Positions 23,070 through 60,994 of a stretch of DNA of 64,000 nucleotides are shown one piece after another. Position 1 is the first letter of the stretch; every line of letters starts with the position of its first letter. The position numbers were made by a program, and so were the translations under genes. The notes beneath the pieces were generated by a model. The model was given only the letters and a program-made list of their open reading frames with translations, was not told the origin of the DNA and did not search any database. Origin of the DNA: Thermoplasmata archaeon (GTDB lineage: Archaea > Thermoplasmatota > Thermoplasmata > Lutacidiplasmatales > SKW197); the NCBI GenBank assembly GCA_026414225.1, contig JAOAJK010000008.1, positions 1,797 through 65,796 of the forward strand. Direction: 5' to 3'.

Positions 23070-24602
23070 TCAGTGCCTGAAAACCCGCCAGCCAGTAAAC
23101 ACCATCGCCATTCCATACTCGTTCGCTGCATCAATTACCTCTCCATCCCTTATTGAGCCCCCTGGCTGAATCACCGCGGTGATTCCTGCCTTCGCCGCAG
23201 CATCGATACCATCCCTGAACGGGAAAAAGCCATCTGATGCCATCACCGCACCCCTTGCCCTCTCTCCTGCCTTCTCAGCCGCAATTTTCACAGCCATGAC
23301 CCTGCTCGTCTGCCCCGGTCCTATGCCTACGGTTTCATTCTCCCTCGCAAACACAATTCCATTGCTCACCACATGCTTCACGACCTTCCAGCCGAACAGC
23401 ATTGCCGCGATCTCCTCGTTTGTGGGCAAACGCCTGGAAGCGCACTTGAGTTCATTTTCGTCCAGCACCCTTGTATCCCTCTGCTGGATAAGCAACCCTC
23501 CGCCTACCTTCTTCATCTCATAGCCCTTCACTTCCCCGCATTTGCCTGTGCGGAGGACCATGCTCTTCTTTTTAGCAAGAACCTTCAGGGCACCCTCCTC
23601 ATAATCAGGCGCGATTATCGCATCCAGGAAATATTTTCTCATTTTCTGTGCGCACTCCTCCGTCACTGTTGAGTTGAAGGCAACAATGCCACCATACGCG
23701 GACAGCGGGTCACCCCCGATACACCGCATGAATGCAATGCTAGAATTTTCACCCTTTGCAACACTCGACGGATTCGTGTGCTTCACGATTGCACATGCGG
23801 GCTCGCTGAACTCCGTTACGATATTCCAGGCGGCATCAAGGTCAAGGATGTTGTTGTAGGAAAGTTCCTTACCCTGGATTTTCTCAGCGCTGGTGATGCA
23901 GGGAAAATTTACCGATGGCTCTGCGTAAAATGCCGCCTTCTGATGTGGATTTTCGCCATACCTCAAACCAAGTTTCTTTTCGAAAACGGCAATGAATGTA
24001 TCTGGAAATTCCTCGCCTATGAACTTCCTCTGGAAATAGTTATAAATCGCAGCATCGTAGACAGCAGTGGTGCGGAATGCCTCAACTGCAAGTTTCTCAA
24101 GCGTGCCTTCACTCAAACCCCCGTTTTTCTTCAGTTCCTCCAGAACCGGTTGATACTGTTCCTTTCTGGTGACCACGGCTGTATAGCGGTAATTTTTGGC
24201 TGCGGCCCTTATGAGGGATGGGCCCCCTATGTCTATGTTCTCCACCGCATCCACCAGCTTGTGCTCTCCTGCAATTGTTTTTTCAAAGGGGTATAGATTC
24301 ACGCACACCATTTCAATTCTCTGAATGTTGTGGATTTTTAACTGGCCGAGATGTTCTTCTTTATCCTCGGCGAGCACACCTCCAAAGATTGCTGGATGCA
24401 GGGTTTTCACCCTTCCATCGAGAATCTCAGGAAAACCCGTGAGATGGGAAACTTCCTTCACAGCAATTCCCGCATTTCTAAGCAGGGCCGCAGTGCCACC
24501 GGTGCTTATTATTTCCACACCCATCTGTGCAAGTCCCTTTGCAAACTCGGCAATCCCGCTCTTATCTGAAACACTCAGCAACGCACGAGAAATCTTCAGC
24601 AT
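23070..24602 (-). CDS. purH: bifunctional AICAR transformylase / IMP cyclohydrolase
   Basis: RALLSVSDKSGI..FAKGL...GVEIISTGGTA...GFPEILDGRVKTLHPAIFGG in the N-terminal MGS-like domain; C-terminal ...VVSNGIVFA...GIGPGQTSRV... Confidence 0.93.
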   Translation of the reverse strand: MLKISRALLSVSDKSGIAEFAKGLAQMGVEIISTGGTAALLRNAGIAVKEVSHLTGFPEILDGRVKTLHPAIFGGVLAEDKEEHLGQLKIHNIQRIEMVCVNLYPFEKTIAGEHKLVDAVENIDIGGPSLIRAAAKNYRYTAVVTRKEQYQPVLEELKKNGGLSEGTLEKLAVEAFRTTAVYDAAIYNYFQRKFIGEEFPDTFIAVFEKKLGLRYGENPHQKAAFYAEPSVNFPCITSAEKIQGKELSYNNILDLDAAWNIVTEFSEPACAIVKHTNPSSVAKGENSSIAFMRCIGGDPLSAYGGIVAFNSTVTEECAQKMRKYFLDAIIAPDYEEGALKVLAKKKSMVLRTGKCGEVKGYEMKKVGGGLLIQQRDTRVLDENELKCASRRLPTNEEIAAMLFGWKVVKHVVSNGIVFARENETVGIGPGQTSRVMAVKIAAEKAGERARGAVMASDGFFPFRDGIDAAAKAGITAVIQPGGSIRDGEVIDAANEYGMAMVFTGWRVFRH

Positions 24603-24611
24603 TTTTTCACC

Positions 24612-26240
24612 TTACATCTTTTTCGTGTTATCTGGCCCCATACCCTGGCAGTGCATGGGATTACATTGTGTGGCCGGTTTTCTCATCAGATAATTCTCCC
24701 AGCCAGAAAACTTCAGGATTGGCTTGAGGGCTTTCTTTCCATGCACCCATCTGTAGTAAAGGAAGTAAGCAAAGATGCTTCCCAGAAGCATGAACGGCTT
24801 TTTGTTGGGTTCCACCCAGCATTTCACATTGTGTTCCCAGCACCTGGCAATGAATTCCCACTGAAGCTCGTTCAGGTCGCTAAGGTCAGCATGCTTCTCC
24901 CTGTGCAGAATGCAGTCCTCCTCGCTTGTGAAAAGTAGAGGCACATAGAAAATTTTCATATCCTTCAACTTGTCCAGAAGTTCGAGGGTTTTAATTGTAT
25001 CTTCCGGTTTCTCATCAGGCAAACCTGTAATCAGAGTGCCAAGCGGATACATCCTGTTGTCGTTCATAATCTTGATTGCCTGCACCACGACTTCCTGCCA
25101 CTGTTCTGGCTTGTAAGGCAGCATCTTTCCCCGCATGTATTTTTCCATCAGGCGTTCGCTTCCTGTTTCTATCCCTACCTCGACGGTGCAGTAGGGGGTG
25201 TTATTGACATCTCTCCATCTGGACTTTTCAACCAGCAGTGGACAGATTTCTTCCATCATTTTGGGGTCATAGACCACTGGGGCAAGGGAGGCATGGGCAA
25301 TCTGGATAAGTTCAACTCCGGGCGTGTCATGCACCAACTTTATCAGCTTCACAATCGCTTCCCTGTTCGGAAGAAAGCCAGGTTTAGCATGGTAAAGGAA
25401 AACATCGTCTGTCTGGAGCGAAATCATCTTCGTCCCGTTTCTCGCGTTCAGCTGAACTTCCTTCATTATGTGCTCCAGCGGAAAGGAGTGTCGCTGCCGC
25501 ATCGTGGGGGAACAGAACGCACACCCCCTCCCGCAACCCCGCATTATCTCCACAAAACCGTAAAGGGCCGGTTTTTTGATTAACGGGATTGTTTCCGGCT
25601 CTGGTTTTTTGCATGTGACCAGTTTTGGCAGGGGTTCTCCATTCACCGCCTTTCTGAAAAGGGCCACTACCTCCGCTTCCGCCTCACCCATCACAATGGT
25701 ATCCAGTCCCATTTTCTCCTGCAACCCGGCTTTATGCACCTGCCACGCACCACTACCACCAAGAATTTTCTTAACACGATATTTTGAGAAGACAGGATTC
25801 GCAAGGAGGTCCTCAAACTCCGCCGCAGACATTGATTTTCCACTTACAGCCACCAGCCCCGTGTATGTCCTGCTCACAAATCCAATTCCGAGAGGGTCCA
25901 TAGATGTGATTCCCACAACCCTCGTATTCTCTCCGACAAAATGCTCGAGCATCGTGGGATAAACCGTTACCACATTTTCCTCTCCGAACTCCTCGATCAA
26001 CAGCGATTCCACCTTCCTCAATCCGTAGGGTGCAAACTTGGCTGTTCCATCAGGATTGAACGGTGTTGGAGGATACCAGTATTTGCGGAGCATGTCTCTA
26101 GGCACAATTTTCGACGGGAAGCCGCCTGTGAAGGCAATAAAGGCGTTGAGGTTGAAATCGCTCATTTCAATAGCCGAAGCCGTGAGAACAATCTTTTTTC
26201 CACCGGTGCGGCCATGTCCATTGTTTTTCCTGCCCAACAT
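24612..26240 (-). CDS. radical SAM protein with N-terminal B12-binding-like/Rossmann-like domain
   Basis: CX3CX2C in EIMRGCGRGCAFCSP. 542 aa; subfamily not recognised. Confidence 0.75.
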   Translation of the reverse strand: MLGRKNNGHGRTGGKKIVLTASAIEMSDFNLNAFIAFTGGFPSKIVPRDMLRKYWYPPTPFNPDGTAKFAPYGLRKVESLLIEEFGEENVVTVYPTMLEHFVGENTRVVGITSMDPLGIGFVSRTYTGLVAVSGKSMSAAEFEDLLANPVFSKYRVKKILGGSGAWQVHKAGLQEKMGLDTIVMGEAEAEVVALFRKAVNGEPLPKLVTCKKPEPETIPLIKKPALYGFVEIMRGCGRGCAFCSPTMRQRHSFPLEHIMKEVQLNARNGTKMISLQTDDVFLYHAKPGFLPNREAIVKLIKLVHDTPGVELIQIAHASLAPVVYDPKMMEEICPLLVEKSRWRDVNNTPYCTVEVGIETGSERLMEKYMRGKMLPYKPEQWQEVVVQAIKIMNDNRMYPLGTLITGLPDEKPEDTIKTLELLDKLKDMKIFYVPLLFTSEEDCILHREKHADLSDLNELQWEFIARCWEHNVKCWVEPNKKPFMLLGSIFAYFLYYRWVHGKKALKPILKFSGWENYLMRKPATQCNPMHCQGMGPDNTKKM

Positions 26241-26358: not shown

Positions 26359-26817
26359 ATGGAGAACCAACAGATTAACCTCCTGCTAGAAGACAAGATT
26401 CTCCTTCATCTCATGGATTTTGCCAAGTACAGGGGCAAATTTGAGAGCCCCAGTGGCGTGACAGTGGTAGGTATAAGCAGGGCTTTGCGGGTCCATCCGA
26501 GAATCCTTCCCCCTATCCTTGATAAACTCAAGTCCGTAAATCTGGTGTGTGAAGAATGGAACTGGGTAGTTGGGTGCAATGCCAAGAAAAAGGTGTATTT
26601 TCTTACTCCCACTGGGATTGCAGAGGCGAAAAGAATTCTTGAAAATCTGAAGAACCGTTCCGTGAGAATAAGGCATGGAAACAGGGAGTTTGATGCGAAG
26701 TTCTGCGATGTAAACTCAATTCTGGGCATGAACATGAGAACCGTGGAGATTCTCTGCTGCATGAGCGATGATGGCTGCATCGACCTCAACATGCGAAACC
26801 GTATGATAAGATTTTAA
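26359..26817 (+). CDS. putative winged-helix DNA-binding protein
   Basis: 152 aa. ILLHLMDF......GVTVVGISRALRV....ILPPILDKLKSVNLV......KKKVYFLTPTGI resembles a MarR/ArsR-like wHTH. Weak, motif-level only. Confidence 0.45.
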   Translation: MENQQINLLLEDKILLHLMDFAKYRGKFESPSGVTVVGISRALRVHPRILPPILDKLKSVNLVCEEWNWVVGCNAKKKVYFLTPTGIAEAKRILENLKNRSVRIRHGNREFDAKFCDVNSILGMNMRTVEILCCMSDDGCIDLNMRNRMIRF

Positions 26818-27281
26818 GCCCCCATGCCCACTTTTGGCTTTTCTTCACCACCTGCACCCATGCCTTCTTTTCGCAGTTCCTGGATTGATGGGATGAGCAT
26901 ACCCAGAATCGTGAGAAAGATAATGGTAATCATTATCATGGAAAAGACCAGCACTGGGGCGTCGAGCTGGACCACCCAGGACCATTCGGGTATCCACGAG
27001 GGGTCTGCAGGATTCCTGTAGGTCATGTTGGCATCCAGGATGTGAATGTCCCCGGGGTTCACAGAGATAAATATGAACATAATCACGATTGCCATTATCA
27101 GCAGGTACAGGTTGGCGCCGAGCGGTTGGGTCCAGTCCTCCTTTCCCCTGGGGTATCGGAGCGAGATGTAAATCAGGCAGGCAAGGATCAGGATTATGAT
27201 TGTCCAGAGCAGTGAGACATTCATCACAATATAGAGGAGCACGAAACCGACGAGCAAAATTATAAACACGATGATTTCCAA
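26814..27281 (-). CDS. small membrane protein (about 4 TM), last gene of the surface-protein/AAA operon
   Basis: 155 aa with hydrophobic helices; its start lies 9 nt after the AAA gene stop. Confidence 0.55.
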   Translation of the reverse strand: MEIIVFIILLVGFVLLYIVMNVSLLWTIIILILACLIYISLRYPRGKEDWTQPLGANLYLLIMAIVIMFIFISVNPGDIHILDANMTYRNPADPSWIPEWSWVVQLDAPVLVFSMIMITIIFLTILGMLIPSIQELRKEGMGAGGEEKPKVGMGA

Positions 27282-27290
27282 GGACTCACC

Positions 27291-30263
27291 TCACCTGGTT
27301 CCATACATGTCCATGAATGTTTTTGCCCACTCAAGGGTTTCAGGTGTGATTGATGAACGGGTCTTTGAAAGGGCTTCAAGCAGATGCTCCATTTTCACTC
27401 CGAAGCCAGCAGCATGGGTTCTACCCCTCTGCTCCGGGCTCACAACAGTGTCCAGATACCTTGTAAATTCCATTTTTGCCCTCGTTTCGGGTCTCTCAAC
27501 CCCATAACCCTCCTCCCTGGCTACCATCTCCCTGATCGCAATCAACTTTGCCTCGTCCACAATTGCGGCAATGTCTGCACCGCTATAGCCCTCTGTGCGG
27601 TGGGCAAGCAATTTGTAGTCAATGTAGCCAACGGTCGGCACATCCTTCAGGTGAATCTTGAAGATGTCCTCCCTCGCTTTCAGATCTGGCTGCGGCACAT
27701 AAAAGATTTTATCAAATCTGCCTGGGCGGAGAAGTGCAGGGTCCAGCAAATGGGGACGGTTGGTTGTGGCTACCACTATTACCCTGTCCTTCGGTCTTAC
27801 GCCATCAAGTTCGGTGAGGAATTGAGATACAGCACGGTTGACTTCGGGTGTCTTCATGCTCTCTTTCGAAGCAAGTGCATCGATTTCATCAAAGAAAAGG
27901 ATGGAGGGGGCATTCTCCCTTGCCCTCGACATCACATCCCTGATTGCTGCCTCACTCTGGCCAGCAAGGGCACTGACAAGCTCTGGACCATTCACGACCT
28001 GTATGGGCACATTAAGTTCATTGCTGGCTGCACGCATGATGTGGGTCTTTCCGCAGCCGGGAGGTCCGAAAAGCAGAATGCCTTTCCCTGTTTTCAGCTT
28101 GAATTGTTCCATCAGTTCGGGTTTTGTCAGCGGAAGCTCCACATACTCTCTTAGCGCCTTCTTCACCTCTTCCAGTCCACCAACATCGTCAAACTTTATC
28201 ACCACCTTCTTCTCGGCTCTCTGCAACTGGTGCATCTTTCTCTCGTAGTCCATCTTCAACTTCTCGTATTCCTCCTTCATGCGCAGGGTGATGCTCGGCT
28301 TGATGTTTGGAAGGACTGTCAGGAAGTCATCCATTGAAATCAGGGAGGGCGTGTTGGTCCTGAGGGACCGTTTCATTGCCAGAATTGCTGCTTCTCTGAC
28401 CAGGTTCGCCAGGTCAGCACCTGAAAACCTTTCAGTTCGTTTTGCAATTTCAGTTAAATCAATATCCGGTGCAGTGGGTTTACCCATCAGATGCACCTTC
28501 AAAATGTCAATTCGCTCCTCAAAGTCCGGCGGAGGCACATAGATTATCTTGTCAAATCTGCCTGGTCGCATCAGAGCAGGGTCAACCATTTCTGGCTTGT
28601 TCGTGGTGCCCACTACAATGACACCGCCCGCCTTATCCAGTCCATCCATTTCCGCCAAAATTATGCTGAGCAACCTTGGAGAAACATCATCTGCAGAGTA
28701 CATATCCCTTCTCTTCGCAATGGCATCAACCTCATCGAGGAAGAGAATACAGGGTTTCCGGTCCTTCGCGGTTTTGAAGAGTTCCGCCACACGGTTTTCA
28801 CTCTCCCCATACCATTTTGACATCAGGTCAGAACATTTCACGCTTATCATTTCCACATGAAGCTCACTTGCGAGGGCTTTCATCAGGAGGGTCTTACCAC
28901 AACCGGGTGGTCCAAAAAGCAGCAATCCTTTGGGGGGCTCAAGCCCGAACTGCTCTGCCACATCCCTCCGGAGCAGGGGGACTATCATTGACTCCCTGAT
29001 GTCCGCCTTCACATCCTTCAAGCCCCCCACCATGTCAAAGGTGGTCTTGCTCAATGCCTTCATCTCCGCAATCCTCGTGCCGACTGCAGTGGCACCGATC
29101 TTGCTGGCAAAGTAACTTGTGAAGATGTCCCTGGAGAGGAGACCTATCGCTGTGGCCAGAAACACTGCAGGGATTATTCCTGGAAGAAGGGTATACGCAA
29201 TCAGCGGATAACTGTAATTTGGATTCATTGCCATTGCAAGCCCGCTCGATGCCATTAGAATTCCAGCCCCTATCATTGAATAAACCACCCAGTTTACCAT
29301 TGTCATCTTTTCCCGGTGCTCTATCAGCAAACTCACTACATAGACAGCCAGTGCCCAGAGAATTATCTCGACGAAGGGCATCAGTGAAAGGCCGAAGTTG
29401 GCAATTGCGGTTTCGAATACACGGTTATCCAGATTTGTGATGTTTGCAAATGCCGCCCCGAAATCAGTCAGCTGGAAATTCGCCAATGCGGGTTTTACCG
29501 CTTCCGTGTGTCCGGCTACGAGGGTCTTCATCCCGGGAGCCAGGGGACCTACGAAGAAACCCAGCACCTGATAATTCCCAAGTGTTACAAACACCGTCAG
29601 TAAAATCGTGCCCACAATTGAGACCGCAAGTCCCAAGATAAGGGAATAGACCATCGCAGCCACCATTGGCACTACGAATGGGAAACCGAGGGGTGCGAGA
29701 AATAGCATGAGATAAACCAGTGCTCCGAATTTCCAGTCGAACAGAGATACGCAAAGCACAAAAATGGAGGCAACGAGAAACACAAAGCCGAGTTCTGGGG
29801 ACTGGTAGCCTATCTCGGCGGTGGTGAAAAATGTGACAAGGATGAGCGAGAGCAGGGGATAACGGAAAGAGATTACACCCACCACAAATGTGATGAATAG
29901 AATCATCCACCAGGGATAGAATGGCATGAACACACTTGAGATGAGCCCGAGTCCGGCAAATGCAAATACTTTCAACCACTGGGGTGATTTTGTTTCACGG
30001 TCTATAAACTCTTTCAATATTTTCTGAAAGGGCTGCTTTTTCTTTTTTTCTTCCTTTGGTTTTTCTTCCGCCACAACCACTTCCTGGGGCACCTGAACAG
30101 GATAGTAACCGCCACCGTAGGTGAAGAAGCCCCCGCCTGGCTGGGGCATCTGCTGCTGGGGATATGCGGGGACAAAGTAGGGTTGCTGGGGAGCACTTTC
30201 CTGCGGGGTCATGCCCCTGTCCTCAGTCCTGCTCCATCTTCTATTTTTTCCCATCATGTGCAT
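27291..30263 (-). CDS. membrane-integrated tandem AAA+ ATPase (Cdc48/VCP-like D1-D2) with P/Q/Y-rich N-terminus and polytopic TM domain replacing the Cdc48 N-domain
   Basis: 990 aa. aa 19-60: PQQPYFVPAYPQQQMPQPGGGFFTYGGGYYPVQVPQ. aa ~96-380: about 9-10 hydrophobic helices. D1: GPPGCGKT (aa 451-458) with ILFLDEVD. D2: GPPGCGKT (aa 733-740) with ILFFDEID. Both modules contain ...TNRP/TNKP..DPALLRPGRFD (SRH). Confidence 0.85.
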   Translation of the reverse strand: MHMMGKNRRWSRTEDRGMTPQESAPQQPYFVPAYPQQQMPQPGGGFFTYGGGYYPVQVPQEVVVAEEKPKEEKKKKQPFQKILKEFIDRETKSPQWLKVFAFAGLGLISSVFMPFYPWWMILFITFVVGVISFRYPLLSLILVTFFTTAEIGYQSPELGFVFLVASIFVLCVSLFDWKFGALVYLMLFLAPLGFPFVVPMVAAMVYSLILGLAVSIVGTILLTVFVTLGNYQVLGFFVGPLAPGMKTLVAGHTEAVKPALANFQLTDFGAAFANITNLDNRVFETAIANFGLSLMPFVEIILWALAVYVVSLLIEHREKMTMVNWVVYSMIGAGILMASSGLAMAMNPNYSYPLIAYTLLPGIIPAVFLATAIGLLSRDIFTSYFASKIGATAVGTRIAEMKALSKTTFDMVGGLKDVKADIRESMIVPLLRRDVAEQFGLEPPKGLLLFGPPGCGKTLLMKALASELHVEMISVKCSDLMSKWYGESENRVAELFKTAKDRKPCILFLDEVDAIAKRRDMYSADDVSPRLLSIILAEMDGLDKAGGVIVVGTTNKPEMVDPALMRPGRFDKIIYVPPPDFEERIDILKVHLMGKPTAPDIDLTEIAKRTERFSGADLANLVREAAILAMKRSLRTNTPSLISMDDFLTVLPNIKPSITLRMKEEYEKLKMDYERKMHQLQRAEKKVVIKFDDVGGLEEVKKALREYVELPLTKPELMEQFKLKTGKGILLFGPPGCGKTHIMRAASNELNVPIQVVNGPELVSALAGQSEAAIRDVMSRARENAPSILFFDEIDALASKESMKTPEVNRAVSQFLTELDGVRPKDRVIVVATTNRPHLLDPALLRPGRFDKIFYVPQPDLKAREDIFKIHLKDVPTVGYIDYKLLAHRTEGYSGADIAAIVDEAKLIAIREMVAREEGYGVERPETRAKMEFTRYLDTVVSPEQRGRTHAAGFGVKMEHLLEALSKTRSSITPETLEWAKTFMDMYGTR

Positions 30264-33836: not shown

Positions 33837-33851
33837 TTTAAATATAAAAAA
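33837..33851 (-). promoter_or_regulatory. TATA-like box for the surface-protein/AAA operon
   Basis: The minus strand reads ttttttatatttaaa, about 20-30 nt upstream of the ATG at 33819 (short or no leader). Confidence 0.4.
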
Positions 33852-34078
33852 GTTGTGGTAAACCTGGCAGTGGGTGTATTATCAAGGGACCTCGCGAACG
33901 CCTGCAGGGAACAGGTAATCCATTAATTGATTTTTCTATCTCCGTCAACAGGCGCCGTGGACTCTTATGCCTTGCGTCCGTTGTTCATCTGGAGCGGGAA
34001 TAACCCCAACGATGAAACTGCCCACAGCAAAATATAAATCCAAGAACCGAATTATGGAAAGCAGAACAAGGTGATTTG

Positions 34079-34783
34079 ATGATGAATGGCTATGTTCATA
34101 CCTATGTCAAGGGTCTAGATGAGCGGATTGAAGGGGGGATACCGAAGGGACATATCGTGCTCATCTGCGGCCCCGCTGGAAGCATGAAATCCTCTTTTAC
34201 ATTTAACATAATGTACAACTATGTACGGGAAAGAAAGGGGAAAGCCCTCTACCTTACACTGGAGCAGAGCCGGGAAAGCTTGATAAAGCAGATGAAGAAA
34301 CTCAACATGGACCCGGACAAGTTTAAGGAGGACATAGCTATTCTTGATATTGCCTGGCTGAGGAAGGAGCTTGAGGAATCCGGCGAGAAATCAATTAACT
34401 GGTTTGATTCGGTGCAGAAACAGCTGGTGAGTTACAGAGAGTTCATAGATTATGACCTTCTTGGTTTTGATTCCCTGGATGCTCTCTACACCCTTTCAGC
34501 AATAGACAATCCGAGGAGTGCGCTTTTCTTCTTCTTTGAAAAACTCAGAAACATGAAAATAACAGCGCTGATCATCTCCGAGATGAGTCCTGAGCGGCTC
34601 CACTTTGGAAAGTATGGTGTTGAGCCATTCCTAGCAGATGGAATAATCCATCTGGACCTTGAAAGAATCGGGAAGACCGTGGGAAGATTCATCAGCATCG
34701 TGAAGATGCGAGAGGTGAAGCATCCCACCGACTATTTTCCGCTGCTTGTTGACAGTGAGGGCTTCAAGATTGTGACAAGGTAA
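34079..34783 (+). CDS. KaiC/RecA-superfamily ATPase-like protein with non-canonical P-loop
   Basis: GLDERIEGGIPKGHIVLICGPAGSMKSSF (Met replaces the Gly before the P-loop Lys), a Walker-B-like LLGFDSLDAL, and ...SIVKMREVKH. KaiC-like single domain. Confidence 0.7.
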   Translation: MMNGYVHTYVKGLDERIEGGIPKGHIVLICGPAGSMKSSFTFNIMYNYVRERKGKALYLTLEQSRESLIKQMKKLNMDPDKFKEDIAILDIAWLRKELEESGEKSINWFDSVQKQLVSYREFIDYDLLGFDSLDALYTLSAIDNPRSALFFFFEKLRNMKITALIISEMSPERLHFGKYGVEPFLADGIIHLDLERIGKTVGRFISIVKMREVKHPTDYFPLLVDSEGFKIVTR

Positions 34784-44280: not shown

Positions 44281-46854
44281 TTACCTTATGTGGTCAAGCG
44301 AGAATGACCCAATGCTTATCTTGTTCTTTGAGAAGTTATACTGGATCCATGCCCTTGACTGGACATCACAGATACCCTTCACACTCAAATAGGTTTTCAG
44401 CTGCTCAAGCTTGAACTCAATCGAACCGTCCATCATGTGTCCAAGCATCTGGATGTCCGATTCACTGTGCATCCCCGTCTCGATCGTGTAGAGGGCAACC
44501 GCCCTATCTCTCTTTCTTTTACCGCAGAAGGGCTGAAGGAACTTGAACACTGATGCAGTGTCTAGATAGGCAATAATTGTGGAGATTGACTCAAAGGTGA
44601 GGCGGTAATACTTGTGTTTCTTCTTGAACTCCTTCGCAATAGTATCAACTGCCTCCGCGATTCCCTTCGTGTCGGTGGGTTCATCGATGTAGATTGCATT
44701 GGGGTTGTTTGTTTCCTCGCCCATGCTCTTTGAATAGGCATCTACATATCTCACAAGACCTATTTTCTCATACTCTTCAAAACTGGGTACTATGAATCTC
44801 AATTCCTCAACAAGGGTTGGAATTGACTTATCGGTAATCACAAAGATGCCGGGCACACCTTTCTTTAAACCTTCCGCCATAAATAAATTCATGAGGACTT
44901 CCTTTCCAACATGTGGAGGACCATTTATGAGCACATTTGACCCGAAGGGAAAGCCCCCGTAAAGCAAATCATCAAGCCTTGTTACCCCGGACTTCACCTT
45001 CTCCTGCTTTATCTCCTGCTCCCTCTCTGCCTCCTTCATCTCGATTTCCTCAGCCACAAGCCCCCTCTCTTTAAGCCGCAATTCTTCCGATTTTGCCTGG
45101 AGATACCGTTCTCTCGCCCTCAGTTCCTCCTCTTTCTTTGCAATCTCCGCCTCCAGGTCCTCAAGCCGTCGCTTTGCCTCAATCGTCCGCGTGTCCTGAA
45201 TTTCTGCTCGCATCGCTGCAAGCTTCTTAAGTTCTTCCTGGAGTTTCTCTTCCCTATACCTTATGTCTTCCTCCCTTCTGTTGTATTCTTCTTCCTTGAA
45301 TGCCAGAGTATCCTTCAACTTCCGCATCTCCTCTTCTTTGAAACGAATTTCTTCCCGCAATCTTCCAATTTCTGCCTCTTTTAGAGCCAGTTCCTTTTCC
45401 TTCGCAGTGAGTTCCTGGATCTTCTTATTAAGGGTCTCTTCAATCTCTGGCACGGATTTCATCCTGAGTTCAAGGGCCTCCTGCTCCAGCTTTCTTTCAA
45501 TCCGCAGGTTCTGGTTCTCCTGCTCCAGTTCTATGATTCTTCTCTGGAGGGCACTTTCCTTTTCCACAAACTCCTTTTCCTTCGCTATGAGTTCCTCTTC
45601 CATCCTGGCACGGATTTCCGCTGAGGCCCCGTTTGTCATTGCGGTTGCGGATGCTTCCCTCAGTTCTGCAATTGTCTTGTTGAGGGCTTCTATTTCCTTC
45701 TCCTTCGTTGCAATCAAACCCTCGAGTTCTGCCACTCGCATTTCCATCTTCTTGTATGCCTGGGCGTCCTTCGGCAGTGACTGGATTCCCTTTTCCAGTG
45801 CCTCCTTGAGTTTGGCAATCTCCTCTTCCCTGCTCTTAAGCACAGAAGCAAGTGCTTCCTTCTCTCTCAGTTCATTTTCAAGCCGTTTTTTAACCGAGTT
45901 CAACTCCGCATCCTTCGCCTTTGCCTGCTGCGCCTTCACATACTTTATTATTGCGACCGTGCCCTTCTTCACATGGTCCAGTTCTTCCTCCATCTGTTTT
46001 CTTTTCTTCACCTCTTCCTGAAGTTGCTTGCTCATCACAGCGGTTTCCTCAATGAGCTTCATCGGGTCAAATGCACCTGACCTCACCCTATCCATGTATT
46101 TTCCCATAATTTCCTTCATTGACTCAATCTCGGCTTTCATTTTTGCAATTTCTTCTTCTTTCTGGCTAAGGAGTTTTTCCTTCTCGGCAAGCTGAACTCC
46201 CACCGCATCAAGTCCGTGTGTTGAGATTTTTTCTGCAACCGCCACCGCTGCCTTCTCTTCCTCCAGCCACTCACCCAGTGCGGTTTCATCACCCTCCAGC
46301 CATTTCTTCAAACTTTCAACTTTCTTTACATTTTCCTTCTCGGATATGGACGGCAATGCCGATTTTTTCTCCTTCCCGACCTCCCCAAAAACCTTGGTTT
46401 CGCTCTCTCCAGTAAGCCATTTTTCGAGGGCATCGTCGCTTTTCGTGGCTCCAGCTATCTCTCTAGTTTCCGCAGTTTTTGATTGTGCAGTGGTTTTGGT
46501 CTCCGGTTCTTCAGTTTTTTCTGATAATTTGCGCTTTACAGCTGCGGCCTCCTCTTTCGTCAAGCCGGTAGCAACGAGTTCATCCTCAAGGGCATCCTTC
46601 AGTTCGTCAACTGTGTCAAAACCATTCTCCACAAGCAACTCTGCCTTCATTCTCGGGAGCCCTAACACTTCCACAAATGTGTTTATTGCTTCCTCTCGCT
46701 GGACTTTAGCTCCAGAGGTTTTTCCAGCCATTCCCTTAAGGGCGGTGCCACAGTTCGGGCAGGTGCTGGCGCTATCACTAACACTCCTACCACAAACCGG
46801 ACACACGATTTTTGTGGTTTCAATTGTTCCAATTATCTTCGGCTTCTTGGTCAT
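44281..46854 (-). CDS. zinc-ribbon / HhH-like / ~450-aa coiled-coil protein ending in a KaiC/RecA-like domain with non-canonical Walker A
   Basis: CPVCG...CPNCG at aa 18-36. The central region is E/K/L/A heptad-rich. C-terminal 235 aa: LDDLLYGGFPFGSNVLINGPPHVGKEVL (GKE instead of GK[ST]) and ...YYRLTFESIS (Glu where the Walker B Asp is expected). Confidence 0.75.
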   Translation of the reverse strand: MTKKPKIIGTIETTKIVCPVCGRSVSDSASTCPNCGTALKGMAGKTSGAKVQREEAINTFVEVLGLPRMKAELLVENGFDTVDELKDALEDELVATGLTKEEAAAVKRKLSEKTEEPETKTTAQSKTAETREIAGATKSDDALEKWLTGESETKVFGEVGKEKKSALPSISEKENVKKVESLKKWLEGDETALGEWLEEEKAAVAVAEKISTHGLDAVGVQLAEKEKLLSQKEEEIAKMKAEIESMKEIMGKYMDRVRSGAFDPMKLIEETAVMSKQLQEEVKKRKQMEEELDHVKKGTVAIIKYVKAQQAKAKDAELNSVKKRLENELREKEALASVLKSREEEIAKLKEALEKGIQSLPKDAQAYKKMEMRVAELEGLIATKEKEIEALNKTIAELREASATAMTNGASAEIRARMEEELIAKEKEFVEKESALQRRIIELEQENQNLRIERKLEQEALELRMKSVPEIEETLNKKIQELTAKEKELALKEAEIGRLREEIRFKEEEMRKLKDTLAFKEEEYNRREEDIRYREEKLQEELKKLAAMRAEIQDTRTIEAKRRLEDLEAEIAKKEEELRARERYLQAKSEELRLKERGLVAEEIEMKEAEREQEIKQEKVKSGVTRLDDLLYGGFPFGSNVLINGPPHVGKEVLMNLFMAEGLKKGVPGIFVITDKSIPTLVEELRFIVPSFEEYEKIGLVRYVDAYSKSMGEETNNPNAIYIDEPTDTKGIAEAVDTIAKEFKKKHKYYRLTFESISTIIAYLDTASVFKFLQPFCGKRKRDRAVALYTIETGMHSESDIQMLGHMMDGSIEFKLEQLKTYLSVKGICDVQSRAWIQYNFSKNKISIGSFSLDHIR

Positions 46855-54227: not shown

Positions 54228-56786
54228 TTAGTTTCGCAATCTTTCAATCTCCCTCGCTACCTTTTTCTGCATAATTTTGTTCCCGCTCTGCTGGAAATAT
54301 CCTCTCACCTCTCCCAGCAACTTCGCCGCCTCCTCCTTCTTCCCCCAGTCAATATACAGCTGGGCCAGCTCAAATTTAACATTGTTTATACTTTCTGGCA
54401 ATTCAATCTCTGAGTACATCCGCAGTGACGCGAGATACCTTTTCTCCGATTCTGGATAATTACCTGCGTAACGAAAAACCTCAGCCATACCCGCTAACGC
54501 ATCAGCAATAAAATCCTGGCTGCCTGTCTCTTCAGCCGCATCCACAGCTCGCTGGGCGAGCTCCATTGCCTTATCAATCTTTCCCTGGCTTGCAAGGCAT
54601 GTGGATATGCTGTTTAAGATTGCCGAAACCATCTTCTTATCGTCTATTTCTGCAGCAATTTCGTATGCCCTCTGATAATACTCAAGTGCGGCCCCAGGAT
54701 CCTCCACCTTCTGGTAAACACTCCCAATGTTGAAGAGGGCAAGGGCAGTGCTTCCCTTCTCACCAGTTCTTTCTGCAATCTCAAGATACTTCTTAAAAAA
54801 TTCGATGGTCTTTTCCGGTTCCTCGCAGATGCGATAGTAAATAACCCCGATATTGTTGTAAACGCTAGCAACACCATCGAGGTCTCCGATTTCCTCGTAA
54901 ATTTTCTTTGAAATTTCAAAAAATTCCATGGCTTTCTGATACTCGCCCAGGTCGTCATAAACCCCGCCAAGATTGTGGTACGAGCCGGCAATCCCTTTCT
55001 TGAGATTGTACTTCTTCCTGATTTCGAGAGAACGCTCCAGGTAATCAATCGCCTCCCTTATTTTTCCAATGTACCACAAGGCAACACCCATTCTGTTATA
55101 TACCTCTCCCATTGCAATCTCATCACCCGCTTTTTCTGATAAACCTATGCTCTCCCTGTAATTTTCTACCGCCTTGATGAACTCACCCTTCGTTTCATAC
55201 ACCCAGCCCTTATTCCGCAAAATCTCACTTCTCAGGCAATATGCATCTGGCTCTGCCTCATCTTCTGCCCTCTCCAGGTGCGCCATACTCTCGGCAAAAT
55301 CTCCCTTTTTAAGATACGGCAGACCCAATTTCATCAGAAATCTTGCCCTCTCGTTTCTTTCAAGTGGCAACCGCAGAACCTCCTCGAGAACCTGGATCTC
55401 CCTGTCATACTCTGCCAGTATGTAATAACAATCCGCAAGCATATCATAAACCTTCAGGGTCTCCTCTCTCAATTCGCTGCTCGCCCCCAGAACCTCAAGC
55501 CCCTTTTTTGCATCCAGCAACTCCTTCAGGCATTCCGCAATTGCGAAATTTCTAAGGGTAAACTCTGCAGAGATTCTCTTGAACTTAACCCCATTCCTTA
55601 TTTCTCCGCCCAGCAGGTAATGCCTGCCAATCTCTCCAGCATATTTTGGATTTCCCCCATAAATTTGCTCCAGCACTGCAGCCGCTCTCGCATGGAGAAT
55701 TCGCTTCCTTGTGCCTATGATTTCACCGTAAACGACCTCATAAACAGGGTTGTGGACGAATCTGTAGACCTCATCCCCTTTTTCGGATTCCTCAAGATAA
55801 TCGATAGCAATCAACTTATCGAGAATATCCAGCAATTTATTTTCCTCGATATCCACAAGTTTTTTCATTACCCTGTACTCAAACTCCCTTCCGAGGATTG
55901 CACAGGTCTTCAGTACCTTCTTTGTCTCTTCATCCAGTTTTGCAAATCTGTACAGAATCATCGTCTTTATGGTTTCTGGCAGCTCAATCTTTTCAATCTC
56001 CAGTGCCCCCAGATTCTTTCCGCTGCTGAAAAATCCCTGTTCCAGGAGGACTTTTCCCATCTCCTGAACAAACAGGGGATTGCCCTCGGTTCTCCTATAA
56101 ATTTCTTTCACAATTTTGTCGGGCAGATTTCCTGCACCAGTAATTGCATTCAATATCTCTGCCACACCTCCTTCAGCCAACGGCCTGAGCTCAATCGTTT
56201 CTGCAACCCGTTCGATGTTTATGTTCTGCACTGTTTTCGTAAACTGATTTACCTGGCCAGTTCTCATACTTTCAATCTGGTATGCAATCACAGCAACGAG
56301 GGACAGCCTTCTCACATTCCTGGCTAGATAGTGAACAAACCCCAAAGTGCCTGAATCCGCCCATTGAAAATCATCGAGGGCAAGAAGAACTGGCTTTGTT
56401 CTCATGATGCGTTCAAACGCCCGCAAATAATTTTCAAAGATTCTGTTTTGCTCCCTGAACGGATTCGCAGAATACAGCGGGGTCTGTTCAATCCCTGATA
56501 GCCCAATTGGTAGATAGGTGGACTCATTCTCCTTCGAAATTCTCGTCAGTGCATCATCTAATGGGAGAAACGGGCTGCTTTTTTCATCAATGCAATTTCC
56601 AGAAAGGACTGCGAAGCCCGTATCTCTGGCAACGCTGCAAATCTCCTGAACTAGCCGGGTTTTTCCGATACCCGAAGCCCCTGTAATAAAATAGATTCTT
56701 CCCCTCCCTGACCTTGCATCGTCCATTCCAGTTCTGATAGTTTCCATTTCTTTTTCTCTTCCAAAGAGAGGAAGGTCCATGGACAC
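54228..56786 (-). CDS. STAND-like AAA (AAA_16-type) NTPase with C-terminal TPR array
   Basis: LFGREKEMETI...YFITGASGIGKTRL (Walker A), VLLALDDFQWAD (Walker B), then a wHTH-like linker and about 10 TPR units of 40 aa. Confidence 0.8.
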   Translation of the reverse strand: MSMDLPLFGREKEMETIRTGMDDARSGRGRIYFITGASGIGKTRLVQEICSVARDTGFAVLSGNCIDEKSSPFLPLDDALTRISKENESTYLPIGLSGIEQTPLYSANPFREQNRIFENYLRAFERIMRTKPVLLALDDFQWADSGTLGFVHYLARNVRRLSLVAVIAYQIESMRTGQVNQFTKTVQNINIERVAETIELRPLAEGGVAEILNAITGAGNLPDKIVKEIYRRTEGNPLFVQEMGKVLLEQGFFSSGKNLGALEIEKIELPETIKTMILYRFAKLDEETKKVLKTCAILGREFEYRVMKKLVDIEENKLLDILDKLIAIDYLEESEKGDEVYRFVHNPVYEVVYGEIIGTRKRILHARAAAVLEQIYGGNPKYAGEIGRHYLLGGEIRNGVKFKRISAEFTLRNFAIAECLKELLDAKKGLEVLGASSELREETLKVYDMLADCYYILAEYDREIQVLEEVLRLPLERNERARFLMKLGLPYLKKGDFAESMAHLERAEDEAEPDAYCLRSEILRNKGWVYETKGEFIKAVENYRESIGLSEKAGDEIAMGEVYNRMGVALWYIGKIREAIDYLERSLEIRKKYNLKKGIAGSYHNLGGVYDDLGEYQKAMEFFEISKKIYEEIGDLDGVASVYNNIGVIYYRICEEPEKTIEFFKKYLEIAERTGEKGSTALALFNIGSVYQKVEDPGAALEYYQRAYEIAAEIDDKKMVSAILNSISTCLASQGKIDKAMELAQRAVDAAEETGSQDFIADALAGMAEVFRYAGNYPESEKRYLASLRMYSEIELPESINNVKFELAQLYIDWGKKEEAAKLLGEVRGYFQQSGNKIMQKKVAREIERLRN

Positions 56787-57850: not shown

Positions 57851-60800
57851 CTATGGTTTTCCGTTCTGTCTGCCCGAGAGTTGAGAGTGCTGGAGCAGTT
57901 CTGCAAATTTATCAGACCATGTGCCAGTGTTTTTTTCACTGGAGATTTTGAGGGCTTTTCCGAGGTAATCCATCGCCTTTTCTACATTGCCAGGTTTCTG
58001 CTGTTTCAGCAACATCAAACAGTACTCGTAACATGTCTTCGCAAACTCGAGGAGCATATTCATTTTCCAGTAGAGAGAAAGGGCTTTTTCAAATGCTGCC
58101 TCTGCATCCTCAAACAACCCTTCCTCCCTCCTAACTATTCCCAGTGTCCTGCGATACTCCGCCTCCAAACTTTCCGAACCGATTTCAGAGACAATTGTTC
58201 CCGCCTTGCCCACACACTCCAGAGCTTTTTCCAGTTTCTGCTGCTTGGCTAGAACTTCCGCAAGGCCATTGAACCCGACGCACAGCAGTTCCTTAGAACC
58301 AGATTTTTCAGCAATTCCGAGGGCTTTCTCGTAGTAGGTTTTTGCCTCCTCCATTTTGTTCATTCTTTTACAAAGATTGCCCAGGTTTATGTAAGAAAGG
58401 GAAAGCCCATAACTATCGCCGATATTTTCCCGCAAAACCACACTCCGTGTGAGATACCTTTCGGCATTCCCGAAATCCCATTTTTCCATATAAATGCTGC
58501 CCAGTGCATTATATATGAGCGCCACACCGTGAGTGTCACCTATCCTCTCCTTTATTACCAGTCCCTTTTCATAAAACCGAAGTGCCTGGTCCAAGTCACC
58601 CTTATCAAAATGCACACTTCCGATATTTATGTAAGAAAGCCCGATTCCGTAGGTGTCACCGATTTTTTTCGCGATTTCCATGCTCTTCTCAAAGTTTTTG
58701 AGGGCAAGATCCAGTTCCCCTTTTCCGTAGTACACAATACCCAGGTTATTAGAGGACTTGCCAATTCCCTCTATATCATTTATGTCTTCAGAAATCTCCA
58801 ATGACTGGGTAAGAAGGTTTATTGCTTCCTTATCATCCCCGAGGTACATCCTGATAGTCCCCATTCTCCGGTAAATCAGTCCAATTTCTTTTTTGTTTTC
58901 GTCCCGCCTGCACATTTCAAGAGCTTTTTCTAATTTCTCGAGGGCCCTATCATACTCACCCTTTCGCATATAGACCAGTCCCTCAAACGAAAGGATTATA
59001 CTCATCTCCCTGGATTCTCCTGCAACCAGTTCCTCTGCCTTTGTGCAGAAGTTCATCGCCTCATCAAATCTACCCATCTTTTCATACACTTCTCCAATTC
59101 TCCTGTGGAGCACCCCTAACTTTTTCAAATCTGGGAGTTGGATTCGTTTGAGCTCTTCAATAGCTTCTGAAAAACATGCTATCGCGTTTTCATAATTTCC
59201 GTTGAGACCGTGAATTTCACCGAGTTTCTCCAGGCACTCTACATATCGGTCCCGCTGTTTTTCTTTCTCAATACATTCAATAGCGTGCCTGTAAAAACTT
59301 GCTGCTTCCCTCACCGCAAAATTTTCCAGGGCCCTGTTTCCAGCTGCGAGGAGATGGGGCAGTGCCCTCTCTTTCAACCCTGCGGAATAATAATGGATTC
59401 CAAGCATGGGTGCCACTGCATCCAGGTTTCCCCTGTGCTGCTCCTCGATATAACTGGCAATCAGTCCATGATACTCCTTTCGAAGTTCGGGATTCAGCGA
59501 TTCATAGATTGTTTCCCGTATTTTCGTATGGTCAAACCGGTACTGGTCACCGGCAGGATGAATCAGTTTATACTCCCTCTCAAGGGTGTTCAGCATCTTG
59601 AGCACAGTTATCCTGGGCATCCCGGCAACATGTTCAATTGTTTTTGAATGAAAGTGCTCGCCTTCCACCGCCGCTATTTCGAGAATGTCTCTGTGCGCCT
59701 CTTCCAGATGGTTGATTCTGTATTCTATTACACTCTGGACTTTTTCGGGAATCTTGATTTTGTTGATATCCAGCGGTTTTTCAAGAATGTATTGTTGCTG
59801 GTTATCGTCGTAAAATATGACCCTCTCCTCAAGGAGCAATTTAAAAACTTCCAGTATGAACAGGGGATTACCCTCGGTTTCCCTGTATATTGTATCCAGA
59901 AAACTCTCTTCGAGATATTTGATTTTCCCGAAATGTGCCTCCAGAAGCAGGAGGGTCTCTTCCTTTGTAAACCTGGATAATTCTATTTTCTTCACCAGTC
60001 CCTCCCTGTCCATCAAGCGAATCGTTTCTGCGAGAGGATGGGGTTTTCCATCCCAACCGGTTGTGATGTCTTCAGTCCTGTATGTGCCTATCAGGAGAAC
60101 AGGCAAATTTCTGAGATTTCTGGCAAGGTAGTGAATCAGGGCGAGCGTGGATGGGTCTGCCCACTGCAAGTCGTCGATGAAAAGAAACAGAGGATTCCTT
60201 TTGGCTTCCCTCCTTAACCCCGAAAGAATGTTCTCGTATATCCTGTTAAGCTTGAGTTTAGGATCATCCAGTTCTTTCGAATAATCAATTCCATCGTACT
60301 TGCCAGAACCTACCATTGATTTTAAAATTTCATCAATTCTCTGCACCTTCTCTACATCCCCACGCCAGTTTTTGAGAACCTCGCCAAATTCTTTTTCTAC
60401 CTCCCTGTGGACTTCTTCCATGTCCTCCTTCAAAAATTCATCCGGTTCCCCGCGAACTATCGCCACAAGGTTCACGGCTTGACCCTTGTTTATCAATATT
60501 GTCCAGTCGCCATATCCTAACCTGTTGAGGGCGTGGTGTTCTTCAGTTTCCTTTTTATCCAGCATTGACAGGGTGTCCCTGACAAAGTTGTTAACCGCGG
60601 TTATCATCCCTGCAAAGATGTCTGAATCCAGCGAGGAAATTGCCCGCTCATACTTCGATACCAGAAGTCCTGCGTCATTCATGAAATATGCACATTCCAG
60701 TTTGGGCGGGGGTTTGTCTACCACCAGAGATTCCAGCCCTGCGGTTCGTAATGCCTCTCTCACAGACATGTAGGGTACAATTGCGTCCTTTACACAGTAA

Positions 60801-60994
60801 CCCGCCAGCACTTTGTAGTTTTTTGCCACGGCGTACTCGGTTAGCTTGCTGACAAGGGTGGTCTTTCCGATTCCGGCCTCACCACCGATAAGCACACAGC
60901 CCGCCTCCCCAGTCAAGGCTGCATCTACATATTGCTTGAGCAAGATGTGCTCTTTCTCACGGGCGACAAACACTGCGCTCATGGTCTGAAACAT
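57851..60994 (-). CDS. STAND-like AAA NTPase + TPR array, with ~140-aa insertion between Walker A and Walker B
   Basis: FVAREKEHILL...LIGGEAGIGKTTL, an insertion (ECAYFMNDAGLLVSKYE...IFAGMITAVNNFVRDTL...WTILINKGQAVNLVAIVRGEP...), LFLFIDDLQWAD, then a long TPR array. Confidence 0.8.
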   Translation of the reverse strand: MFQTMSAVFVAREKEHILLKQYVDAALTGEAGCVLIGGEAGIGKTTLVSKLTEYAVAKNYKVLAGYCVKDAIVPYMSVREALRTAGLESLVVDKPPPKLECAYFMNDAGLLVSKYERAISSLDSDIFAGMITAVNNFVRDTLSMLDKKETEEHHALNRLGYGDWTILINKGQAVNLVAIVRGEPDEFLKEDMEEVHREVEKEFGEVLKNWRGDVEKVQRIDEILKSMVGSGKYDGIDYSKELDDPKLKLNRIYENILSGLRREAKRNPLFLFIDDLQWADPSTLALIHYLARNLRNLPVLLIGTYRTEDITTGWDGKPHPLAETIRLMDREGLVKKIELSRFTKEETLLLLEAHFGKIKYLEESFLDTIYRETEGNPLFILEVFKLLLEERVIFYDDNQQQYILEKPLDINKIKIPEKVQSVIEYRINHLEEAHRDILEIAAVEGEHFHSKTIEHVAGMPRITVLKMLNTLEREYKLIHPAGDQYRFDHTKIRETIYESLNPELRKEYHGLIASYIEEQHRGNLDAVAPMLGIHYYSAGLKERALPHLLAAGNRALENFAVREAASFYRHAIECIEKEKQRDRYVECLEKLGEIHGLNGNYENAIACFSEAIEELKRIQLPDLKKLGVLHRRIGEVYEKMGRFDEAMNFCTKAEELVAGESREMSIILSFEGLVYMRKGEYDRALEKLEKALEMCRRDENKKEIGLIYRRMGTIRMYLGDDKEAINLLTQSLEISEDINDIEGIGKSSNNLGIVYYGKGELDLALKNFEKSMEIAKKIGDTYGIGLSYINIGSVHFDKGDLDQALRFYEKGLVIKERIGDTHGVALIYNALGSIYMEKWDFGNAERYLTRSVVLRENIGDSYGLSLSYINLGNLCKRMNKMEEAKTYYEKALGIAEKSGSKELLCVGFNGLAEVLAKQQKLEKALECVGKAGTIVSEIGSESLEAEYRRTLGIVRREEGLFEDAEAAFEKALSLYWKMNMLLEFAKTCYEYCLMLLKQQKPGNVEKAMDYLGKALKISSEKNTGTWSDKFAELLQHSQLSGRQNGKP

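Follow-up and report, generated by a model that had tools for sequence, protein, structure and literature searches.

The question raised by this locus is what a Cdc48-like double-ring ATPase does when it is built into a membrane. Unfoldases of the Cdc48/p97 type are regarded as soluble proteins that reach membranes through adaptors, and the membrane AAA proteins known to us have a single ring and one or two anchors. A 64,000-nucleotide (nt) stretch of contig JAOAJK010000008.1 from a Thermoplasmata archaeon (this whole stretch is called the window) encodes a protein in which a low-complexity head and a polytopic membrane domain replace the Cdc48 N-domain in front of two Cdc48-type AAA modules, D1 and D2. 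This architecture had been proposed in a preliminary description made from the sequence alone, and it was supported by Pfam/NCBIfam models, hydropathy, structure prediction and a sequence search of the PDB. We found that the protein, named here TM-AAA-AAA for its transmembrane (TM) part and two AAA modules, represents a family spread over uncultured Thermoplasmatota, that its gene belongs to a conserved operon with surface-protein genes, and that in a second subfamily the ATPase is naturally fused to a homologue of these surface proteins. The operon and the gene fusion had been missed by the preliminary description and are the most informative feature of the locus. The protein is a natural Cdc48-like double ring that is built into the membrane by a large conserved domain and has genetically obligate extracellular partners.

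The open reading frame (ORF) of the ATPase is single and unbroken over 990 amino acids (aa), as the preliminary description had read it. The gene is genuine: when the whole protein was used as query, over 110 full-length relatives were found that are 46–90% identical to it over at least 91% of its length, membrane domain included. Since a Shine-Dalgarno-like motif, GAGGTGA, directly abuts the first ATG, translation may truly start at Met3 or Met4, which would shorten the protein by 2–3 residues only. Residues 1–78 are of low complexity, and the 42 residues of the head proper contain 9 P, 9 Q, 6 G and 5 Y, that is 21% Pro, 21% Gln, 14% Gly and 12% Tyr as compared with about 2–6% each in the remainder of the protein (P 6%, Q 1.5%). 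The head, which is predicted to be cytoplasmic, is followed by EVVVAEEKPKEEKKKKQ, a Lys/Glu patch; the position of the head given earlier was correct and the composition count agreed with it. Pro-rich heads were found in the relatives too, some of them with extra inserts or zinc ribbons.

The TM-AAA-AAA protein is not a singleton. All full-length relatives came from metagenome-assembled genomes (MAGs) of Thermoplasmata or Thermoplasmatota, where their only names are “AAA family ATPase” or “transitional ER (endoplasmic reticulum) ATPase.” When one genome per GTDB species was scanned with an alignment of the membrane domain, 44 loci were obtained; 39 are labelled as Thermoplasmata, Thermoplasmatota, Thermoplasmatales or Methanomassiliicoccales and 5 only as Methanobacteriota archaeon, and cultured strains were absent among the 44. 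Members are defined by a membrane domain that has the motifs PFYP, YQ, DW and TxGN and is directly followed by a D1 module with the pore loop MS[KR]WYGESE, and the window protein has both. Two subfamilies were recognised. Subfamily 1, to which the window protein belongs, ends in YGTRx. The proteins of subfamily 2 are mostly about 1290–1430 aa long, with shorter forms of about 1010–1070 aa in the L038 and EX4484-6 (L042–L044) lineages. One copy of each subfamily is present in three MAGs (L007 with L032, L011 with L034, and L048 with L039), and a search of the window for a second family member, a partner with a von Willebrand factor A (vWA) domain or another AAA protein found none. Most subfamily-1 relatives are 1100–1250 aa long and carry between the Pro-rich head and the membrane domain an extra insert of a TM helix, an external domain of ∼170 aa and another TM helix (for example, around aa 110–310 in P0006 and aa 120–330 in L037), which the window protein does not have. 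In the halophilic-clade proteins P0107 (Candidatus Natronoplasma, aa 14–104), P0108 and P0109, the cytoplasmic head contains Zn_ribbon_3/DZR zinc ribbons instead of P/Q-rich sequence. The ATPase genes of L037 and L041, on high-GC MAG contigs, seem frameshifted, with long spurious Arg/Pro-rich frames running through the membrane domain; this is probably assembly error and not pseudogenisation.

The kind of motor was judged from the AAA part. An hmmscan, which the preliminary description had recommended with an eye to a missing CDC48_N, detected two AAA modules (282 bits) and two AAA_lid_3 domains and no CDC48_N. The tandem of classical AAA modules, each with AAA_lid_3, is the arrangement of the Cdc48/VAT/p97 family (TIGR01243), and in the ranking of PDB sequences Thermoplasma VAT came first (E = 3e-133), followed by p97/Cdc48 and then by the AFG2/SPATA5 type. 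The double-psi barrel and beta-clam of Cdc48 (CDC48_N/CDC48_2) were not found, the N-terminal part consisting of the low-complexity head and a hydrophobic helical region, and the TIGR01243 score (550.9 bits) stayed below the cut-off of 802.65. D1 and D2 are 47% identical to each other and both score higher with VAT D2 than with VAT D1 (267 versus 182 bits for D1; 214 versus 186 bits for D2). The preliminary description held that both modules are complete, with GPPGCGKT, Walker B and arginine motifs, and that both rings look competent. All these motifs were located in both modules, so the first part stands, and the second has to be qualified, the nucleotide motifs being intact in both rings but the aromatic pore loop present in D1 only. 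Among the 42 family members compared, the D1 Walker A motif is invariant and the D1 Walker B motif was recognised in all but one (41/42). The D2 pore loop of subfamily 1 is ALAG, SLVG or GFAG beside intact nucleotide motifs, and D2 of subfamily 2 is degenerate (e.g., GPKGCQKL, VFTEIE) or unrecognisable. Because D1 keeps its pore loop and Walker motifs whereas D2 has lost either its pore aromatic (subfamily 1) or its Walker motifs (subfamily 2), the membrane-proximal D1 is taken as the conserved engine.

The strong similarity to VAT and p97 suggests at first a Cdc48/VAT or PAN paralogue of the ordinary kind, whose membrane part would be no more than a tether and which would supply the 20S proteasome, in keeping with the name “transitional endoplasmic reticulum ATPase” given to relatives and with the PAN model NF003069, whose score of 502.9 exceeds the cut-off of 500. 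This score is, however, reached only as the sum of the two modules (2 stretches), so that an automatic pipeline could mis-name the protein; the other PAN model, TIGR01242, remained below its cut-off (477 against 500), and neither the OB domain nor the coiled coil of PAN was found. The archaeal Cdc48 carries a C-terminal HbYX (hydrophobic-tyrosine-X) motif by which it docks to the 20S proteasome (PMC3493965). The window protein has no C-terminal tail at all; its terminus, FMDMYGTR, lies right behind the final lid helix, YG[TQ]R plus 0–1 residues forms the C-terminus in 113 of 115 relatives, and an HbYX motif (penultimate Y/F) was found in 0 of these 115. The conserved 290-aa membrane domain with its invariant motifs and the obligate partners described below also far exceed what a tether would need, and we consider a simply tethered Cdc48 or PAN to be very unlikely. 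A relation to FtsH is confined to function, in that an N-terminal membrane anchor places the AAA ring at the membrane: the FtsH model TIGR01241 scored 475.6 bits (cut-off 600), Peptidase_M41 was not among the best 25 of 41 Pfam matches, and D2 reaches the C-terminus and so leaves no room for a protease domain. The AAA part further matched the PADLOC models of IetA (E = 6e-76) and the NCBIfam model IteA (NF042959; 236.3 bits), as might be seen if the protein were an anti-phage defence ATPase of the Iet type. The latter score falls far short of the cut-off of 510, the matches are restricted to the generic AAA modules, an IetS-like protease partner is missing, no neighbour matched a PADLOC model, and the synteny of the module with surface genes of a housekeeping type is stable across the phylum, which together make a defence role of this type so improbable that it is close to negligible.

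What holds this motor on the membrane is a domain with no counterpart in the collections searched. Kyte-Doolittle windows of 19 residues with values of at least 1.6 were confined to aa 97–381, the maximum in the AAA part being 1.22. AlphaFold2 modelling of aa 79–420 with a 57-sequence alignment (56 homologues) gave a confident structure (predicted local distance difference test, pLDDT, 86.6; predicted template modelling score, pTM, 0.84) in which an amphipathic pre-helix precedes about nine long hydrophobic helices, and a linker helix leads on to D1. The preliminary description had counted about 9–10 hydrophobic helices at nt 29124–29978 and had named a failing TM prediction as what would overturn it; its coordinates were correct, and hydropathy and AlphaFold2 agreed in giving helices there. 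A loop of ∼60 aa (aa 230–293), probably extracellular, was partly disordered in the model and had two short helices. The conserved motifs are PFYP (114–117), YQ (153–154), DW (176–177) and TxGN (227–230), and the invariant or near-invariant residues gather at helix ends (P94, PFYP, YQ, DW, TxGN, G235, Y384, G395 and R397); protease-like motifs were not found among the conserved residues of the domain. The Pfam scan of aa 79–407 in 12 members at E values up to 1 returned zero families, the profile search of the PDB with the membrane domain returned no sequence match, and Foldseek with the model found nothing significant in the PDB (best E = 1.5, TM-score at most 0.2) or in BFVD. The rhomboid/Derlin, insertase and transporter folds, the last two of which the preliminary description had suggested looking for, were therefore rejected within the limit of Foldseek sensitivity. 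When 1.84 billion representative proteins were searched exhaustively with HMMER, the domain occurred in only 31 clusters (50% identity), and in the long cluster members (roughly 880–1400 aa) it lies just N-terminal of an AAA Walker A motif, whereas shorter members look fragmentary. These results define a new membrane domain family whose fold has no known match. As to topology, the domain start is cytoplasmic in all three architectures observed and so is the AAA part, which requires an even number of crossings; with nine helices counted, one helix would have to be re-entrant or interfacial. The domain contains only two N-glycosylation sequons, N274 and N349, and their loops are placed outside when counted back from the AAA part.

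The partners of the motor were indicated by its gene neighbourhood. Four co-directional genes, for surface glycoproteins A and B, the ATPase and a small membrane protein, follow each other with gaps of 2, 5 and 9 nt, and a TATA-like box, TTTATATTTAAA, is present only before A and is the probable archaeal promoter of the operon. Glycoproteins A and B are paralogues (30% identity, E = 1e-53); their cytoplasmic tails end in RRKKAEEEEKRITV-COOH and RRKKTEEEEKRITV-COOH, respectively, and the extreme C-terminus EEEEKRITV is identical in both. Neither matched any Pfam family. The AlphaFold2 model of B, for which subfamily-2 proteins with a homologous ectodomain served as alignment, had a pLDDT of 76.9 overall and 85–95 over aa 180–510, and showed four beta-sandwich domains and a long C-terminal helix; Foldseek matched it to tandem FN3/Ig ectodomains and adhesin repeats (E about 1e-8), a generic resemblance. 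A word-indexed search with B recovered only itself and one relative, and homologues of A and B were taken from the fetched ATPase loci. In these, the order A-B-ATPase was found at 16 of 16 distinct subfamily-1 loci with enough upstream sequence (17/17 when the duplicate L004 is counted), and it persists where the ATPases are only 52–65% and the A/B proteins only 21–31% identical. The tail EEKR[IV]T[VL] is retained in most clades, and the halophilic clade has QERSLVK and GLAEGG. Homologues of the small protein lie immediately downstream of the ATPase gene at 32 of 41 loci with sequence there, in both subfamilies. The window locus has the full operon of A/B-type Ig-like surface proteins and small 4-TM protein. 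In the acid-soil clade (L005, L012–L015, L021, L030, L037 and L045; including Ca. Lutacidiplasma), the usual 4-TM protein is undetectable downstream of the ATPase, and a different small membrane ORF and a PKD-domain surface protein of ∼1250 aa are found there. Elsewhere, the neighbours of the conserved module include PKD, CarboxypepD_reg or sedolisin-like surface proteins.

Subfamily 2 has no separate A and B genes. The C-terminal two-thirds of A/B have their homologue in the first ∼400 aa of the subfamily-2 ATPase (hmmsearch E = 1e-60 to 1e-88), and this polypeptide runs from a signal peptide through beta domains, a TM anchor and a charged linker into the membrane domain and the AAA modules, which is the gene order of subfamily 1. 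By the logic of a Rosetta-stone fusion, the A/B-like ectodomain is a built-in subunit and not a substrate, and this is strong evidence that A and B would likewise be physical subunits of the ATPase complex rather than its substrates; the ATPase and the surface partners very probably form one complex. The upstream partner in subfamily 2 is a signal-anchored vWA protein (Pfam VWA 49–60 bits) with the tail LGYTxNER in most loci, whose stop codon lies between an 18-nt overlap with and a 13-nt gap from the ATPase start, and ahead of its gene is that of a giant protein with Big_7/Big_13 repeats, at least 1750 aa long. The possibility that the vWA partner is a diverged A/B paralogue was rejected, the hhalign probability being 2%. 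The giant protein of L032 (L032:1–5319) has at aa 1671–1736 a terminal helix-hairpin-helix/RNA_pol_A_CTD-like domain, which is odd on a surface protein.

Putting these findings together, we tentatively favour a dislocase or unfoldase without a protease, similar to FtsH or ERAD (ER-associated degradation), that may draw membrane or surface proteins into the cytoplasm. The ATPase would be the motor subunit of a conserved, Thermoplasmatota-specific complex spanning the envelope. By analogy with classical AAA proteins it would be hexameric, with its two rings stacked in the cytoplasm and six copies of the polytopic domain keeping the N-terminal face of D1 on the membrane. Stoichiometric partners would be A and B, which are type-I membrane proteins whose cytoplasmic tails are conserved, and the small 4-TM protein; together these would make a crown outside the cell and contribute to the membrane ring. 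ATP hydrolysis in D1 would draw polypeptide segments through the KWYG loop from the membrane side into the cytoplasm, and D2 may serve as an auxiliary or stabilising ring. In classical AAA translocases the substrate enters at the N-terminal face of the ring and is moved by aromatic pore loops; since the N-terminal face of D1 is on the membrane and only D1 has both the invariant pore loop and the invariant nucleotide motifs, pulling from the membrane side into the cytoplasm would be expected. We know of no archaea with FtsH. Thermoplasmata are also reported to lack PAN (PMC3493965).

Several points weigh against this proposal. The large glycosylated adhesin-like ectodomains and the position in a surface-gene cluster would not obviously be needed by a general quality-control dislocase, and would be just as compatible with a dedicated role that involves partner proteins of its own. 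In Foldseek against the PDB, the membrane domain matched no known dislocation channel (such as Hrd1, Derlin/rhomboid or YidC), and the count of nine helices clashes with the even crossings of an N-in/C-in topology. The direction of pulling is carried over from other AAA translocases. With neither a protease domain nor an HbYX tail, there is no indication of the route by which extracted substrates would be degraded. RNA evidence was also sought, and the sole run carrying the locus was DNA, from a hot-spring metagenome.

The same findings led us to weigh a dedicated surface-protein machine, in which the motor would grip the tails of its partners and retract, release, turn over or re-tension adhesin-like proteins, that is, ATP-driven inside-out force transduction or regulated shedding in place of general quality control. 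It fits nearly as well as the dislocase. The extreme C-terminal tails, of which EEKR[IV]T[VL], LGYTxNER of the vWA protein and VGVGA of the small protein are candidates for gripping, are conserved although the ectodomains have diverged as far as stated above; the module is strictly linked to surface proteins of the Ig/FN3, vWA and giant Big_7/Big_13 kinds; and where a genome has two paralogous systems, each has its own partner set. The tails vary by clade, however, as the halophilic sequences show, tail gripping is only putative, and in subfamily 2 the A/B-like ectodomain lies within the ATPase polypeptide, a copy that cannot be threaded. Taken by itself, we regard such a dedicated role as somewhat unlikely. 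More broadly, the four products may constitute an ATP-driven machine across the envelope that mechanically couples a Cdc48-like motor through the membrane domain to a crown of adhesin-like glycoproteins outside the cell, either for force transmission at the surface, by which surface proteins or the surface (S-) layer would be retracted, released or remodelled, or for polypeptide import; we hold this formulation to be doubtful, and to our knowledge neither activity is known for prokaryotic AAA proteins. Import alone would mean that the Ig/vWA crown captures polypeptides outside the cell or in the envelope and D1 pulls them through a channel of the membrane domain for nutrition or recycling. The D1 pore loop is turned to the membrane, the ectodomains are of ligand-binding type, including a vWA domain with a metal-ion-dependent adhesion site (MIDAS), and a secreted sedolisin-like peptidase adjoins the operon in L003/L004. 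This peptidase neighbour is confined to one clade, however, Foldseek matched the membrane domain to no channel or transporter fold, and we know of no ATP-driven protein import of this kind in prokaryotes; an importer is wholly speculative and very improbable.

Comparison with known systems helped to place the favoured dislocase. VAT and p97/Cdc48 are substrate-threading unfoldases. The TM-AAA-AAA protein shares with VAT (PDB 5G4F, 5VC7) and p97/Cdc48 the tandem classical-clade D1-D2, AAA_lid_3 and intact Walker A/B and arginine motifs, and differs in that the head and the membrane domain stand in place of the double-psi-barrel N-domain, both modules are closer to VAT D2 than to VAT D1, the aromatic pore loop is in D1 only, the C-terminal tail with HbYX is absent, and membrane and surface partners are obligate. 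FtsH, Yme1 and m-AAA likewise have an N-terminal anchor that sets the substrate-entry face of the ring on the membrane and an extracytoplasmic domain as part of the complex, and FtsH is the presumed functional analogue for membrane-protein extraction; it has a single AAA ring, anchored by 1–2 TM helices and followed by an M41 zinc protease, whereas the TM-AAA-AAA protein has about 9–10 helices, two rings and no protease. The Cdc48-Hrd1/Derlin retrotranslocon of ERAD and Msp1/ATAD1 are AAA motors pulling proteins from membranes, and in ERAD a polytopic membrane component works together with Cdc48. That component is a separate protein of known fold (rhomboid-like Derlin, Hrd1), unlike the domain described here, which is fused to the motor and has no ubiquitin link. 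The Ycf2-FtsHi motor and Bcs1 are also membrane-embedded AAA assemblies coupled to protein movement across or out of a membrane, but belong to other clades with other partner sets and membrane parts; the Foldseek match of the membrane domain to a Ycf2-FtsHi subunit was insignificant (E = 5.7, TM-score 0.13). The Sulfolobus membrane-bound AAA (MBA) likewise is an archaeal AAA protein with segments that cross the membrane and a part outside the cytoplasm. MBA has one AAA module and a small external domain between two TM helices, and occurs in Crenarchaeota; the present family, found in Thermoplasmatota, would differ in these respects. MBA is the only group named “membrane-bound AAA” in the archaeal census of Forouzan et al. 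(PMC3493965; Serek-Heuberger et al., 2009, cited there). The preliminary description had allowed that the family might already be characterised under another name; in the literature searched no description, name or characterised function of it was found, and only the unrelated MBA surfaced.

The Cdc48-class unfoldase is thus known, and the membrane domain family, the operon with its obligate partner set and the natural fusion variant are new. If the protein is a dislocase, it would be an archaeal counterpart to FtsH and ERAD in a lineage without FtsH and PAN, and a single-polypeptide model for the coupling of a motor with a channel. If it acts on its adhesin-like partners instead, it would present a new way to couple cytoplasmic ATP to the archaeal cell surface.

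Table 1. Coordinates in the window of the operon and of the parts of the TM-AAA-AAA protein.
Feature	Position (nt)	Strand	Basis or remark
TATA-like box TTTATATTTAAA, 18–29 nt upstream of gene A start	33837..33848	(-)	Read from sequence
Surface glycoprotein A, 619 aa	31960..33819	(-)	Signal peptide, 21 N-glycosylation sequons, beta-rich ectodomain, C-terminal TM anchor
Surface glycoprotein B, 562 aa	30269..31957	(-)	Signal peptide, 21 sequons, four Ig/FN3-like beta-sandwich domains, TM anchor; 2 nt after A
TM-AAA-AAA protein, 990 aa	27291..30263	(-)	Starts 5 nt after gene B
P/Q/Y/G-rich low-complexity head, aa 19–60	30084..30209	(-)	Composition; length and sequence variable among relatives
Lys/Glu-rich patch, aa 61–80, leading into amphipathic pre-membrane helix	30024..30083	(-)	Composition, hydropathy, AlphaFold2
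Polytopic membrane domain, aa 95–381, about 9–10 helices	29121..29981	(-)	Hydropathy, AlphaFold2, conservation
Linker helix, aa 382–403, last TM helix to D1; invariant Y384, G395, R397	29055..29120	(-)	AlphaFold2, conservation
AAA module D1 and lid, aa 408–680	28224..29042	(-)	Walker A GPPGCGKT 451, Walker B ILFLDE 506, RPGRF 566
D1 pore loop 1, K483-W-Y-G486	28806..28817	(-)	Invariant MS[KR]WYGESE in 42/42 family members
AAA module D2 and lid, aa 689–990	27294..28199	(-)	Walker A GPPGCGKT 733, Walker B ILFFDE 788, RPGRF 846
D2 pore loop 1, A765-L-A-G768, no aromatic	27960..27971	(-)	Motif comparison
Small membrane protein, 155 aa, about 4 TM helices, tail GMGAGGEEKPKVGMGA	26814..27281	(-)	9 nt after ATPase gene

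The surroundings of the operon in the window were also inspected. A 152-aa ORF without Pfam match (26359–26817, + strand) converges on the small membrane gene with a 4-nt overlap of their ends, and among the relatives only the closest, L001 and L002, retain it. Further downstream on the operon strand lie the genes of PurH (AICARFT/IMPCHase) and a B12-binding-type radical SAM protein (23070–24602 and 24612–26240, both − strand), a neighbourhood common only to the 90%-identical L001 and outside the conserved module. On the other side, a divergent gene for a 235-aa KaiC-like ATPase (34076–34783, + strand) lies 256 nt upstream of the operon, and an 857-aa protein (44281–46854, − strand) has a KaiC/DUF7504 domain only in its last ∼240 aa, the first 600 aa being unannotated. 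The 3′ end of the window encodes three large STAND-like paralogues of 852, 1047 and 882 aa (54228–56786, − strand; 57851–60994, − strand; and 61066–63714, + strand), each with an N-terminal AAA_16 NTPase and long TPR arrays.

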